Source of the DNA: a virus
Taxonomy: Duplodnaviria > Heunggongvirae > Uroviricota > Caudoviricetes
Direction: 5' to 3' (one strand)
Length of the DNA stretch: 64,000 nucleotides
IMG/VR virus record: IMGVR_UViG_2925897562_000001
Part shown: piece after piece, positions 1 through 22,919 of the stretch
How positions within the stretch are numbered: position 1 is the first letter of the stretch
Layout: each line of letters begins with the position of its first letter
Translations under genes and position numbers: made by a program
The notes under the pieces: generated by a model
The model's input: the letters and a program-made list of their open reading frames with translations, nothing else
What the model was told of the DNA's origin: nothing
Databases searched by the model: none

Positions 1-17
1 ATCGTATATTGAAGAAA

Positions 18-41
18 TCCCGCCAATTGGCGGGATTTTTA
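18..41. terminator. hairpin aaatcccgcc-aatt-ggcgggattttt, bidirectional terminator downstream of the minus-strand gene ending at 44
   Basis: 8-bp GC-rich inverted repeat with flanking A/T runs read directly in sequence. Confidence 0.5.
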
Positions 42-43
42 CC

Positions 44-1138
44 TCACGAGAAACTCTTTTCTGATGTCAGCCAACAGTGCTCGTGCATATCTCTTGGTGG
101 TTTTTCGACAAATGCCTCTTCAGCCACATCCTGCCAGGGGATTTGTTTAGCCCATTCAGTTATAGCGTTATGGTTTGCCGAGAATAACGGTATTGTATAG
201 GCCTTCAGCCAGTCTAATGTGCTGGAGTTGTGTTTTTGAGCGTGATGTTTCGCATGGTGTTTGGCGATCACGATCGTAGGCACTACCCATTTACTACCGT
301 CAGTCATTGTGAAGTGCATATTACGGGGAACAGATGACTTTTCCATCAACTCCCGAATCCCGGGGAATTTCCCCAAGATCAATCGGCGATATTCATCGCT
401 ATTGCGCCCACCAAACTCTTTGGCTTTGAATTCAAGATATGCTTCAGAAACGAGAGGTGAATCCTCTGTGTTTAGAGTTATCGCCGTGAAAAAACCAGCA
501 GGATTGTTTTTACTATGGGCCAACCGGTGATGCGAATCATAAAAGTACCCTTTCTCGCGTTCCGATGGTTTCGACAGCAACAGCAGGCGCGAGTCATAAT
601 TGGTTAAATTGCCAGTTATCACTGCATGAGCGCGATCGCTGATTTCCGCCGAGTTAATAACGATGAAAAGATCGTGCGGTCCAGTAAAACCAGCCAGAGA
701 CTCTTCGTTATTCAGACAATAGGTTATATAGACGCATCCCCATGTTTCACTGATATGCACCAACCCTTTGTCAGGGTGTATTCTGAAATAATTGCCAAGA
801 AAAGGGTGTTTTTGGGTAACTCGCTCCCAATAACGGAACATATAGTCAATTATTGTTTTTCGACAATCGTTAATCGCAGGAGAAACAACCACTGTACGGG
901 AACACGAATACAGTATTGTTTGCAGGATGCTAATCACTGCCACAATAGAGGTTTCCCCAATACCATGTGGTGTGGTGGCAGTGATTTTGGCTCCGGTGTT
1001 CTTTATCGCGTTAATAATTTTTGCTTGATGAGGTGTTAACTCAATATCAAGCAACTCTTTTGCTGCCAGTTCCCAATTGTCTTTATACCGTTCTATCAGT
1101 GCTAACCAGGCAGATTCATTCTGTATACGATTAATCAC
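44..1138 (-). CDS. terminase large-subunit (PacB) N-terminal ATPase-domain paralog with degenerate Walker A/B; no nuclease domain
   Basis: 364 aa, GTG start with GAGGTG SD; aligns by eye to PacB of this window (HGIGETS vs GHGTGKSD; LFIVINSAE vs LYIIDEASG; LLLLSKPSEREKGYFYDSHHRLA vs [21 protein letters not shown]); start overlaps stop of upstream ORF. Confidence 0.6.
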   Translation of the reverse strand: MINRIQNESAWLALIERYKDNWELAAKELLDIELTPHQAKIINAIKNTGAKITATTPHGIGETSIVAVISILQTILYSCSRTVVVSPAINDCRKTIIDYMFRYWERVTQKHPFLGNYFRIHPDKGLVHISETWGCVYITYCLNNEESLAGFTGPHDLFIVINSAEISDRAHAVITGNLTNYDSRLLLLSKPSEREKGYFYDSHHRLAHSKNNPAGFFTAITLNTEDSPLVSEAYLEFKAKEFGGRNSDEYRRLILGKFPGIRELMEKSSVPRNMHFTMTDGSKWVVPTIVIAKHHAKHHAQKHNSSTLDWLKAYTIPLFSANHNAITEWAKQIPWQDVAEEAFVEKPPRDMHEHCWLTSEKSFS

Positions 1139-2033
1139 TTTCCACCTCTTCCGTGGTGTTTTCTTGCAGTTCTGTTAATGCAGCACGACATAGGTTCCGG
1201 GCATTGGCTATAGCCACACTTTTGACTTCATCCGTCATCGTGCAGGTAATGTACTGATCGAGTTCTTCAGCGCGGATGATGCTTTTGCCAATCAGAAACT
1301 GTATTTGCCATAGCAGATCGGCATCCATAATCAGAATTTCTGCCGGGCCTTCAGGGCCAGCCGGGAAGGAAACATAAGACTGTTTGCCCAGGCCGACAAC
1401 TCGACAACTTGCTTCAAGAATTGCGCGCTTGAGGTCTGACTTTATAACGGAAACAGGTTGATTTTCACCAGTGATTACGCCGTTGACATGGAAAGGCATG
1501 TAGCTTGAAATACGCTCTACTTTCCACACGCCAGCAAGCGATCCTTCATGCAGCACAATGGGGGTAACCGCGAGTTTCATCTCACCATATAACTGCTGGC
1601 AGATAGCTGGATTGCTGAATACATCTAAAGGCTCACATTCAAACAGCTGCGCAATCTGCATGAGGTCCATCATGGTCATCCCTGGGGTACGAGCAGTAAT
1701 GAATTTGCGCATACCAGTATCCATTGCGCTCCAGATTGCTACACCATGCTTTTTGCTCACTTCTTCAGTAAAGCCAAGGTGGCACATGATGGTTTTTTCG
1801 ATAGCCAGATCAGAGATAGAAACCTTTTCGCCAGGTACTCCATCATTATTGATGGTCACTTCGACACTCTGGCCATTACGTAGGCGGTATTGAATGGTTT
1901 TAGTATTTTGTGCTGTCATAGTCTTTTCTCTGCTTAAAAACTGATGTATTGCGTCTTCAGGTGGGTTAGGAATGTTTTCCCACCAGCGAAAGCAATATCT
2001 CGTGGTGTTCTGTTCGTTAAAAACGCGTGCCAT
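1131..2033 (-). CDS. hypothetical protein, translationally coupled to the PacB-like paralog
   Basis: long ORF between ssb and the PacB paralog; start uncertain (ATG 2033 or ATG 1919); no recognisable motif. Confidence 0.5.
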   Translation of the reverse strand: MARVFNEQNTTRYCFRWWENIPNPPEDAIHQFLSREKTMTAQNTKTIQYRLRNGQSVEVTINNDGVPGEKVSISDLAIEKTIMCHLGFTEEVSKKHGVAIWSAMDTGMRKFITARTPGMTMMDLMQIAQLFECEPLDVFSNPAICQQLYGEMKLAVTPIVLHEGSLAGVWKVERISSYMPFHVNGVITGENQPVSVIKSDLKRAILEASCRVVGLGKQSYVSFPAGPEGPAEILIMDADLLWQIQFLIGKSIIRAEELDQYITCTMTDEVKSVAIANARNLCRAALTELQENTTEEVESD

Positions 2034-2121
2034 TGCCAACTTTGGCGTTTTTTAGCGAGTTCGTGCTTTTGTTGGCGTTTGGACCACCGCTTTTCTTTCA
2101 GTCGTTTTTTACTCATAAACT

Positions 2122-2610
2122 CTAAAACGGAATATCGTCTTCAAAGTCCATTGGAGGTTCGTTATTGGCGCTGCTCTGAGGTTTGCCGCCACCGCTGTAT
2201 TGCTGGTGGTTTTGAGGTTGGTTTGACTGCCCCCAGCCATTTGAGGACTGTGAATCGTCGCGGCGAGTGTCGATCATTTGCATGGTGCCGCCCTGGCTGA
2301 CGATAATTTCCGTCGTGTAACGTTCTACACCGGCGTCATCAGTCCACTTACGGGTTTTAAGTTTCCCTTCGATGTAGACCTGAGAACCTTTTCGTAAATA
2401 CTCACTCGCAATTTCAGCAAGTTTTCCGAACAAAACGACTTTATGCCATTCTGTTTGCTCTTTCTGTTGGCCCGTTTGCTTATCGCGCCATGATTCATTC
2501 GTTGCGATGCTGAGTCTTCCGACTGCGCCGCCATTTGGTATATACCTGATCTCCGGGTCTTGCCCCAGGGTACCAATCAGGATGACTTTATTTACACCGC
2601 GTTGTGCCAC
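2122..2610 (-). CDS. ssb: single-stranded DNA-binding protein
   Basis: 162 aa; SSB-like OB-fold N-terminus, Gly/Gln-rich linker and acidic tail DFEDDIPF. Confidence 0.95.
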
Positions 2611-2629: not shown

Positions 2630-2646
2630 AAATTAATTAGGGCAAT
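2630..2646 (-). promoter_or_regulatory. C1 repressor operator-like site (ATTGCCCTAATTAATTT, 2 mismatches to consensus) 20 bp upstream of ssb
   Basis: match to 17-bp asymmetric P1 C1 operator consensus ATTGCTCTAATAAATTT. Confidence 0.4.
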
Positions 2647-20241: not shown

Positions 20242-21726
20242 TTATTCATTAAGCCATGCCAGAGCTTCATCAACCTGCGCTTCGTCTTCGACGCTAAGCA
20301 CTTCATCCTGGGGAACATAATCCGCCAGCATAGCGAAACAATATGTATCCCAATGGTCTGGTGAGTGCAGGTTGAGTTTTTTCTTCATATCCTCCTTACT
20401 CATCACCTTCCATTGACCTGCGGAGTTAATCCCTACAGGGATTTTCGACGCTTCCTCAATAGTTTCATTACCCTTATCCAGTCTCATACGACCAGATTTT
20501 ACGGCCTCTGCGGCTTGAACGTTGGCATAAGCACGTTTATCAAAGTACAGGCTCTTATCTTCACGGCTATGCATCTTTTTACCCCAGCGTATACGCTGTA
20601 CGGTAATACCATAATACTCGTACATCAGATCCGCCGTTGCTTTACCCAGCCCATCGCCGTCTATCGCTATGGTGATATTTGGGAATCGCTCAGGATTACA
20701 TTCTGCGAAAATTTTGGCGGCAAGCTGCGTTTCTGTAACGTCTGTGTATTCCAGCATTCGATAGTTGATTACACGGCGTTTATTTCTCTGGCCGGACACC
20801 ATCATGATATTGATAACGGACTTATCCCGTCCCGTACCACCAGCAACGTCCACACATGCAAGCCAGCCCCATCCTTTGGCAATCTTGACTTTCCGCCGCG
20901 TCGCACGTTCAACCTCATCACGTCCAAGAAGGAAGCCATCCTGTGATTTAGGGAATAGTCCGCGTACCTTAATCATGTACATAGGGTTATCACGCCCGCC
21001 GTACTCCGCCAGCTTCATTTTGATAAATGCTGGCGTTACCAGCGGTGATTCCTCACTGTTAAGCGTGATCGCCGTATAAACGCCATCAGGGTTACCAGGA
21101 CGCTTGGCCAGTTTATGGTGAGTATCGTAGAAATAGCCGCTTGGGCGTGTAGGCTGTGACAGTAATAAGATGCGGTTATCCTGTCCGGTAAGAGCACCGG
21201 TGATGATACCGAAAGCTCTATCACTGACACCGGAGGCTTCATCGATAATATACAGAAGATGATCTGCGTGTTCACCGGCGAGAGCTTCTTCACTTCCCAG
21301 ACGAAAGCCCTTCGGTACTACAGTCCATACACCTTTACCAGTAACCTCATAGAAAGCGGTTTCTGTCAGAACAAAATAATCAGCAAGCCATGGAAAACGG
21401 CTGGTGGCAGTAGCCCAGTTTATCTTGATGTACTTGAATATACCGGTCATTACCTGCTGAATTTTGTTCGCAACGATAATGGCGCGGGCACCGGGATACA
21501 TGATTATGAACAACATGATCATGATAGAAGTCATGTCTGATTTCCCGGTACCGTGACCAGACGAAACAGATGTCTTGCTACCCTGTTCCTGCACAGACTC
21601 AATAATCAGATCCTGCTGCCAGGTAGGTGTTTTGCCGAACAAAACATCAGCGGCAGCAATCCAGTCATAACGATATAGCGCCACCAGCTCGCGCCAACGT
21701 GGATCCGTTACGCAACTTCTGGCCAT
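20242..21726 (-). CDS. pacB: terminase large subunit (pacase B)
   Basis: 494 aa; Walker A GHGTGKSD, Walker [11 protein letters not shown]; start overlaps pacA stop. Confidence 0.95.
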
Positions 21727-22919
21727 TAATCATCATCCCCGTATAGCTTGCGGGTAACTTCTTCGTCTTCCTCCTCGTCTTCGTCCAGGTCTTGTTCCAG
21801 CCATGGGTCGTTTGATACACCTTCAGTATCAACATCTCCATAACCGCCTGTATCAACGATATCGGCGATTTCTTCCCTACGCTGCTCAATCCACAATGCG
21901 GCATCGGCGCGGCGGTTGGCGGCCCGTTCTCGCGCAACTTTGTCCAGATCTTCAAGAGAAGGGCCACCGACGGCTGTTTGCCTTTCCTCATCATCGGTAT
22001 TGGTCTTAGGAGCACGCAGATCGGCTTTGATTTGCTCCAGCATCAGGGGCGGCACTTTTCCGCCATGCGCCTCGATGAATTCAGCTGCTTCCAGCACTGA
22101 CCAGTTATTTTCACGCTTTCGTTCGTATGCCAGCTTAACAATGCCAGCTTGCCCCATAGATAAAGCGTGCTTTTCCGCCTCCCGGCTTTCTTTTCGATAG
22201 TTATTCCGGATGCTGTAAATGGTGTTGATCAGGCTGCTTATCTGCGCGGAACAGCTGTTTAGCATGCTCGCGATACGATATTCAGGCGGAGTCCCTTCAT
22301 CATCGTCTTTTTGCTGATCGCGCATTTCCTGCACCAGACGAATACACGTATCCCTGGCGTTCTCCAGCATAAGGAGATGAGAAAGTGACTTTTCCAGAAG
22401 AGTGGTTTCCAGAACATCGGCCCCGGACCGACGCAACATAGCGCGCGCGGCCTTCCGCGCTTCAACGTTATCTATCAGGTAATCGCCAGCTTCGAATTCA
22501 AAGCGTTCACCATCATCATCCAGGGTGTCGCGTTCCAGGCGATCACGTAAGGTCCGGTGGGCGCGGGTGATCACGTCATGATCATCAGAACGATCATTTA
22601 TGCGCTTATTTTGGCGCTTCGCATTCTCGACTGCGGCACTGACAACGGCATTAACCCTTTGTTTTTCCGCTATTTCAGCCGCAATGTGATCACCTGCATG
22701 TTGATCATTAGAGTGATCAATGATCATGCTTTTTAGTGGCTTCCTGACTGGCTTATTTGGCTTGCGGCTGTCCGCTGTCCTGGTGTCTTCTTTGAAGGCA
22801 CGGAGATAACGACGTGCAGTATTAGGGTTAAGATTAAACTCGGCGGCATACTGTGCGATGGTGTAACCACCATCTCGCGCCAGGCGAGCAAAATTCTTCT
22901 TGTGATCGTCCCAGGTCAC
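21726..22919 (-). CDS. pacA: terminase small subunit (pacase A)
   Basis: 397 aa, GTG start with AGGAAG SD; acidic C-terminus; contains the pac site. Confidence 0.95.
22565..22727. other. pac: pac packaging site: two clusters of TGATCA/G hexamers (Dam sites) inside pacA
   Basis: hexamers at 22567, 22579, 22591 and 22686, 22701, 22714, 22720 read directly. Confidence 0.7.

Follow-up and report, generated by a model that had tools for sequence, protein, structure and literature searches.

A non-catalytic homolog of the large terminase ATPase domain is coupled to isaA in P1-like phage-plasmids

Introduction

What use does a P1-like phage-plasmid have for a second terminase ATPase domain from which the catalytic residues have been lost? 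The question is raised by the beginning of a 64,000-nt stretch of DNA from a Caudoviricetes virus (IMG/VR record IMGVR_UViG_2925897562_000001; the whole stretch is referred to below as the window), which encodes, next to a homolog of the P1 gene isaA, a 364-amino-acid (aa) protein related to the large terminase (TerL) PacB and termed here the pseudo-terminase. The first 2.7 kb of the window matched P1-like phage-plasmids at 95–99%, and a search of the whole window for the operator pattern of the P1 C1 repressor returned 14 matches versus 0.3 expected. In the literature on inactive terminase paralogs and terminase decoys we found no description of the pseudo-terminase gene.

The pseudo-terminase keeps the fold of a large terminase without its catalytic residues

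The gene, its ATPase-fold domain with the two altered motifs, and the resident terminase genes were located in the window as follows.

44..1138, minus strand: pseudo-terminase coding sequence, 364 aa, GTG start at 1138-1136, TGA stop at 46-44 (open reading frame list)
353..1138, minus strand: TerL/PacB-type ATPase-fold domain, catalytically degenerate, residues 1-262 (Foldseek and PacB alignment)
947..967, minus strand: degenerate Walker A motif, residues 58-64, HGIGETS (PacB HGTGKSD), Lys62 replaced by Glu (PacB alignment)
644..670, minus strand: degenerate Walker B motif, residues 157-165, LFIVINSAE (PacB IIDEASG versus VINSAEI), Asp-Glu replaced by Asn-Ser (PacB alignment)
20242..21726, minus strand: pacB
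21726..22919, minus strand: pacA (the pacA-pacB pair spans 20242-22919)

The initial annotation had described the protein as a catalytically degenerate relative of PacB, and BLASTP bore out the relationship with a significant alignment to the 494-aa PacB of the window, at 35% identity over 266 aa (E 5e-55), in which residues 11-272 lay on PacB residues 11-274. The same alignment confirmed the predicted loss of both nucleotide-site motifs: the Walker A signature GxxGK[ST] has lost its catalytic Lys, and FIVINS stands in place of the Walker B signature hhhhDE with its catalytic Glu. Several elements outside these motifs are common to the two proteins, including the N-terminal helices, the “EExLAG” loop, the motif III strand, and the lid region (FYDSHH, EDSPLV, YGGR..YR..LG.FP). 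The arginine finger of the P74-26 terminase (R139) faces the Ala of the invariant “LAG” throughout the PacB family.

Profile and structure comparisons pointed to the same ancestry. Among PHROG families, the pseudo-terminase matched phrog_5902, a family of unknown function, over its full length (E 2.6e-187, residues 1-364 on profile positions 1-359), and the TerL family phrog_2 with E 4.3e-9; neither the pseudo-terminase nor IsaA had a match in Pfam. An AlphaFold (AF2) model built on a 54-sequence alignment reached a predicted local distance difference test (pLDDT) score of 89 and a predicted template modelling (pTM) score of 0.82. Foldseek matched this model to solved TerL ATPase domains with E values of 4e-10 to 1e-6, the best being Sf6 gp2 (4ife, E 4e-10), followed by those of P74-26, D6E, and T4 gp17.

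The reported lack of a nuclease domain was also upheld. Positions 255-455 of the PacB-family profile, in the C-terminal half of the protein, matched solved nuclease-domain chains of Sf6 gp2, and the pseudo-terminase showed no counterpart to this RNase H-like half, ending instead in an unrelated domain of ~95 aa. The description as a degenerate ATPase paralog therefore stands insofar as the protein is a homolog without catalytic residues, and fails insofar as it implied a simple truncation, since the last ~95 residues are a distinct conserved domain.

Two public records (MH422554.1, 16006-17100; MH445380.1, 116879-117970) label the pseudo-terminase “terminase large subunit”, and RefSeq labels it hypothetical. 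The former label is unsuitable because the Walker A Lys, the Walker B Asp-Glu pair, the nuclease domain, and a neighboring small-terminase gene are all absent, the upstream neighbor being isaA. Taken together, the alignments and the predicted model make it close to certain that the pseudo-terminase is a pseudoenzyme of large-terminase fold and descent.

A family of short relatives has lost the ATP site and is maintained by selection

A full HMMER scan over 1.84 billion representatives returned 749 matches at E ≤ 1e-3; of the first 70, the 69 with a length of 200 aa or more were aligned. All long proteins in this set (~470–570 aa) retained GxGK[ST] and D/E-E-A/G-S, while a short set of 230–444 aa, with at least 11 diverged relatives, had neither the Walker A Lys nor the Asp-Glu pair; we refer to the two classes as live and dead. 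The Lys was present in 48/48 live PacB-type homologs and in none of the 11 dead proteins, and the Walker B Glu was likewise found in all 48 live proteins. No replacement was conserved among the dead members, the Lys position being occupied by E, R, H, T, M, I, or C and the Glu position by S, N, D, H, or Q.

The loss extended through the ATP site. Twelve positions that were at least 85% conserved in the 48 live TerLs were no longer constrained in the 11 dead proteins (S56, G57, H58, K62, A86, Q91, H152, D161, E162, S164, G165, and T192). The fold glycines were retained in the dead set together with Q38, G59, G61, G150, F199, and F258, and two positions, W22 and R251, had become dead-specific constraints, both at 100%.

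The ratio of non-synonymous to synonymous substitution rates (dN/dS) of the pseudo-terminase was 0.32 for the closest pair, 0.38 for the D6-like pair (dS 0.75), and ~0.17 for distant pairs, for which dS was saturated. The full-length reading frame was preserved across lineages at 47–53% aa identity. Within IMG/VR, 7/7 P1-type copies carried HGIGETS with VINSAE or VINAAE and 9/9 D6-like copies carried (Y/H)GIGRPQ with IIVDSAH, and a scan there for close relatives of the protein P0007 found nothing. In complete E. coli genomes, 100/100 matching records spanned at least 80% of the cassette that carries the gene. As judged from these substitution rates and fixed motifs, the pseudo-terminase is under purifying selection and is not a relic. 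The suggestion that it might be a domesticated relic is contradicted by the dN/dS of 0.17–0.38, by motifs fixed within each subfamily, and by the extent of the E. coli matches.

The alignment yielded further observations on other proteins. Four live terminases (P0051, P0070, P0030, and P0038) contained a long insertion exactly within the Walker A loop (SSGHG-C...HN-TGKS), which looks like a P-loop intein from its position. A second, very weak terminase-like match without Walker motifs (L089:1890-2441, 23% identity to residues 1-188) was located 3.5 kb upstream of the live PacB of that element.

The pseudo-terminase did not arise by recent duplication of the resident pacB

PacB proteins from three P1-like lineages were 57–60% identical to each other, compared to 32–53% for the dead proteins of the same lineages, indicating faster divergence of the pseudo-terminase. 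Each dead protein was 32–38% identical to any PacB, with no preference for its own. This about equal distance to the PacBs of all three lineages argues against a recent duplication of the resident pacB; thus, of the initial view of a terminase paralog within the same element, the homology to PacB holds and the recent duplication does not. The dead proteins formed one clade in a neighbor-joining tree built from all columns. When the catalytic columns were removed, they fell into three groups, and a single clade received a bootstrap of only 25–38%, so inactivation has possibly occurred repeatedly.

The two proteins also differ in their genomic setting. Both are encoded in P1-like phage-plasmids and share the ATPase-domain fold, with homology over ~260 aa; however, the pseudo-terminase lacks the Lys, the Asp-Glu pair, and the RNase H-like nuclease, its other ATP-site residues are unconstrained, and its gene is optional, resides in an accessory region rather than beside pacA, and codes for an unrelated C-terminal domain. 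Relatives at three loci (L012, L018, and L022) had a P1/P7-type C1 repressor (Pfam family), a cre-like integrase, and pacA/pacB as neighbors, and those at L016 and L103 had P1-type accessory genes; all relatives with readable surroundings were found in such P1-like elements.

The gene is translationally coupled to isaA

The partner gene and its junction with the pseudo-terminase gene are located as follows.

1131..1919, minus strand: isaA homolog, 262 aa from ATG 1919 (listed as an open reading frame at 1131-2039, 302 aa, from TTG 2039)
1131..1148, minus strand: coupling junction read from the sequence, with a Shine-Dalgarno-like GAGGTGG at 1148-1142, the GTG start at 1138-1136, and the isaA TAA stop at 1133-1131, giving an 8-nt overlap

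The 8-nt overlap with the upstream reading frame noted at the outset was confirmed at this junction. The frame itself had been described as coupled and of unknown function beside ssb; the coupling stands, and the gene is not an unnamed one, since it is the homolog of P1 isaA, with 95% nucleotide identity to it. IsaA probably starts at ATG 1919, as suggested by the phrog_2326 match, which begins at residue 44 of the listed frame, and by agreement with D6-like homologs and other records; P1 isaA is annotated with 320 aa (L001:3502-4464). The name derives, in P1, from the adjoining IS1. The dN/dS of isaA was about 0.1–0.15 for unsaturated pairs, and P1 isaA was non-essential in a CRISPR interference (CRISPRi) screen (PMC10695390). 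Comparison of IsaA with Pfam, NCBIfam, PADLOC, and PDB returned nothing. The ideas that it arose by duplication of the small terminase, or is a nuclease domain that has split off, were rejected for lack of similarity to PacA or PacB. Searches with the protein models of PADLOC-DB returned nothing at E ≤ 0.1 for the pseudo-terminase, IsaA, P1 IsaB, or the 281-aa protein of SJ46.

An IsaA homolog was encoded directly upstream, ending within the start of the dead-protein gene, at 16/16 further IMG/VR loci. The pair in the D6-like lineage was 46% (IsaA) and 53% (dead protein) identical to that of the window and occupied a different genome site, following a cre-like recombinase gene, two hypothetical genes, dut, and a DUF2829/Tad2-like gene, and preceding doc/phd. 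Among 5426 complete E. coli genomes, pacB was found in 598, isaA without the dead protein in 334, and isaA with it in 99; the dead protein was never seen without IsaA in this set. The pseudo-terminase was thus present in 99/598 PacB-positive genomes (about 17%). Its natural carriers include vB_EcoM-813R1 (ON470617) and the plasmid NZ_CP026725. More distant relatives had as immediate neighbor an overlapping Ref-type nuclease gene (L018), a radical-SAM gene, or a LysM gene, and one such element encoded a remote IsaA homolog 3 kb away.

The pseudo-terminase genes of the window and MH422554 were 98.6% identical at the nucleotide level, versus 93.8% for the adjoining isaA genes, a difference that implies a recombination break within the operon. 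A Tad2-like gene (Thoeris anti-defence 2, PF11195/DUF2829) was found next to isaA in SJ46 (L003:4290-5135, E 2.6e-22), and the same gene type beside isaA in D6-like plasmids (L004:3521-4222, L005:3503-4165); these neighbors suggest that the surroundings of isaA may collect counter-defence genes.

A clean cassette in a variable slot

Local blastn of window positions 1-1200 against the SJ46 and P1 loci delimited the inserted segment.

41..1130, no strand assigned: presence/absence cassette, clean, 1.09 kb; in SJ46, window positions 1-40 are joined straight to 1131

The pseudo-terminase and isaA lie between ssb and the convergent hxr gene. This slot has been described as “region 2, isaA-IS1-isaB” (PMC9603915) and as “RD-2” (PMC6906374), and is highly variable in P1-like phage-plasmids according to both. 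Adjacent to it, hxr and ddrB form the beginning of the genes classed as antirestriction (PMC10695390). In SJ46, the Tad2-like gene is placed between ssb and isaA. An IS1 interruption of the gene in P1 or P7 had been considered initially and did not hold: the P1 slot contained IS1 and the unrelated isaB, with no trace of the pseudo-terminase gene by blastn or tblastn, and P7 matched only ssb at this locus. P1 IsaB was also considered as a remnant of the pseudo-terminase and was rejected for lack of similarity.

Predicted early expression from upstream of ssb

The signals flanking the locus are as follows.

2122..2610, minus strand: ssb, first gene of the predicted ssb-isaA-pseudo-terminase operon (open reading frame list and P1-like match)
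2630..2646, minus strand: operator of the P1 C1 repressor, matched with 2 mismatches by ATTGCCCTAATTAATTT, immediately ahead of ssb (pattern search)
15..38, no strand assigned: palindromic hairpin, AAATCCCGCC-AATT-GGCGGGATTT, 5 nt past the stop codon, RNA fold −21.2 kcal/mol, z −4.1

The operator match occupies the same position as the C1-controlled operator Ossb/Op21 of the P1 annotation. A consensus scan of the minus strand from ssb to position 44 detected no promoter-like or terminator-like site, and the hairpin at 15-38 is a probable bidirectional terminator common to the pseudo-terminase gene and the convergent hxr, which has this orientation in MH422554. The simplest reading of these elements is that ssb, isaA, and the pseudo-terminase gene would form one early operon repressed in the lysogen. 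Behind a C1 operator match, the pseudo-terminase and IsaA would probably be produced jointly and soon after induction or infection.

The C-terminal end is a small domain found mostly as a stand-alone protein

The ~95-aa C-terminal end of the pseudo-terminase is a separate domain.

83..331, minus strand: small alpha/beta domain, residues ~270-352, of an uncharacterised phage family, mostly stand-alone (~100 aa)

Residues 272-361 matched the C-terminal part of phrog_17928 (E 1.6e-13). A profile search with the small domain returned 718 proteins; the 120 listed were nearly all stand-alone, with ~100 aa, and 0/120 carried a Pfam domain. The pseudo-terminase contains the signature MPDGSxW...PLF...DWA..W of this family, whose invariant residues are M13, D15, S17, W19, F54, W64, and W91. 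Searches with the small domain gave no convincing match to a solved structure and revealed neither a DNA-binding motif nor a fold match. In other phage-plasmids of ~90 kb, it is encoded as a stand-alone protein after dnaB, near rdgC and a methylase gene (L008:7971-8291; L010:6001-6297), and in Xanthomonas CP2-like phages it forms the C-terminus of a 471-aa protein within a recombinase-exonuclease-SSB module (L102:1891-3306). Many other dead relatives were without it, having no extra domain or a different one. The relative P0025 has the reverse order, the small domain preceding the dead ATPase. GC-rich foreign DNA interrupts this protein (L103:8001-10500) about 125 residues into the ATPase, and a Ref-type nuclease gene and an AbiH gene were found in its vicinity.

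Discussion

Our results describe a selectively maintained protein in which the fold, the N-terminal helices, and the lid of a terminase ATPase were kept while catalysis was lost, which suggests that the pseudo-terminase acts by binding. All relatives with readable context reside in P1-like elements with PacA and PacB, making a partner of the PacB ATPase domain the most likely target. We therefore favor, tentatively and at less than even probability, a reading in which the protein imitates the ATPase domain of PacB without catalysis, binds a partner of the terminase, and in this way restrains or poisons packaging of the PacAB type. Candidate partners would be PacA, the PacB ring, or the portal, and the pseudo-terminase might hold back or poison the motor either as an inactive subunit or as a competitor. 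Directed at its own element, such a protein could delay pac cutting early in the lytic cycle; directed at a rival, it could sabotage a co-resident or co-infecting P1-like element. Both functions named in the initial annotation, a packaging regulator and a decoy, are possible.

Several points weigh against this proposal. A dead protein resembles foreign PacBs as much as the PacB of its own element, and this lack of preference gives no sign of co-evolution with the cognate terminase. An inhibitor of the packaging motor of its own element would be costly unless specific or transient. DNA metabolism is a better fit than packaging for the small domain and for several neighbors of the family (ssb, Ref, DnaB, recombination modules), and the confinement to P1-like elements could reflect ancestry and not a P1-specific partner. 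Finally, the early timing derives from the P1 annotation and from consensus scans.

Instead of a terminase partner, the target could be the immune system of the host. An early, dead ATPase might occupy or mis-assemble the sensors of the TerL fold (Avs1-3, Upx) before the real PacB is made. Several systems of the E. coli group sense TerL, and for EcAvs2 and Upx the TerL ATPase domain alone suffices for activation (PMC13601566). The position of the gene in a known hypervariable accessory region (PMC9603915, PMC6906374) beside hxr and ddrB, the Tad2-like (anti-Thoeris family) gene adjoining isaA in SJ46 and D6-like elements, the probably early expression, a divergence faster than that of PacB, and the presence in only about 17% of PacB-positive genomes are all consistent with such a role. 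However, Avs2 and Avs3 contact the active-site residues of the terminase and the bound ATP (PMC13601566), and the loss of all of these contacts in the pseudo-terminase makes tight binding doubtful, while Upx is expected to be triggered rather than blocked by a TerL-fold protein. Moreover, anti-defence genes usually cross phage types, and this family was encountered in P1-like elements alone. We consider this mimicry of an immune ligand unlikely, though not negligible.

A role in DNA metabolism, in which the dead fold and the small domain would bind DNA or SSB, RecA, or a helicase during early lytic replication, independently of packaging, appears improbable, though it and the immune mimic are the two alternatives to be taken seriously. 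It would agree with the predicted co-transcription with ssb, with the relative that overlaps a gene for a P1 Ref-type RecA-dependent nuclease (L018) and another near a Ref gene (L103), with the stand-alone small domain encoded just after dnaB and near rdgC, and with the CP2-like fusion in a recombinase-exonuclease-SSB module. Yet the neighbors vary (radical SAM, LysM, IsaA, Ref), early regions are mixtures of accessory genes, and the small domain, which has no DNA-binding motif or fold match, is missing from many dead relatives.

That the gene is a decaying, functionless remnant of a duplicated terminase gene is very improbable. In its favor, neither catalytic residues nor a nuclease domain survive in the protein, P1, P7, and SJ46 do without the gene, which is thus dispensable, and P1 isaA was non-essential in the CRISPRi screen (PMC10695390); but decay would not be expected to leave a dN/dS of 0.17–0.38 with a full-length reading frame at 47–53% aa identity, degenerate motifs identical in all copies of each subfamily, new family invariants (W22 and R251), a conserved translational coupling, and 100/100 E. 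coli records matching at least 80% of the cassette. Least credible of all is an ATPase still active through non-canonical residues. The P-loop glycines G59 and G61 and the adenine-contacting Gln of the Q-motif (Q38), kept in all dead members, make some nucleotide binding conceivable, but the Lys and Glu positions vary without a conserved replacement and the remaining ATP-site positions are also freed.

Known proteins offer partial parallels to the proposed binding mimic of PacB. SaPI Ppi is one of the packaging-interference proteins of phage satellites and binds the small terminase (TerS) of the helper. The proposed mode is alike, in that a terminase component is bound non-enzymatically to block or redirect packaging in a contest between mobile elements; in contrast to the pseudo-terminase, such proteins are satellite-encoded, target TerS, and are not terminase homologs. 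The clamp-loader delta-prime subunit is an inactive paralogous subunit of an ASCE/AAA+ assembly, which likewise keeps the P-loop fold with degenerate nucleotide-site motifs for a structural or regulatory use. It is, however, a stoichiometric part of an essential machine, whereas the pseudo-terminase is the product of an accessory gene in a minority of elements. T4 vs.8 is described as a stand-alone, second, nuclease-less TerL ATPase fold beside the real terminase of its phage and is, like the pseudo-terminase, an uncharacterised protein (PMC13601566). Its Walker motifs are described as conserved (PMC13601566), while both are lost here.

More broadly, dead, nuclease-less PacB ATPase domains may constitute an undescribed family of P1-like phage-plasmids, possibly with multiple origins and sometimes fused to an adaptor, that would serve as conflict mimics, poisoning the motors of rivals or blinding terminase-sensing receptors; we regard this generalization as possible, with the odds somewhat against it. 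Few phage proteins are as conserved as large terminases, which also trigger several bacterial immune sensors. P1-like elements spread resistance genes and drive generalized transduction. The finding of a pseudoenzyme corrects the records labeled “terminase large subunit”, and isaA together with the pseudo-terminase gene makes up a defined, testable two-gene module. A dead terminase copy kept by selection in common phage-plasmids of E. coli and Salmonella would represent a new kind of terminase derivative and, if it is indeed a conflict mimic, the first case in which a virus has converted the ATPase of its own packaging motor into a weapon or shield that works without catalysis.

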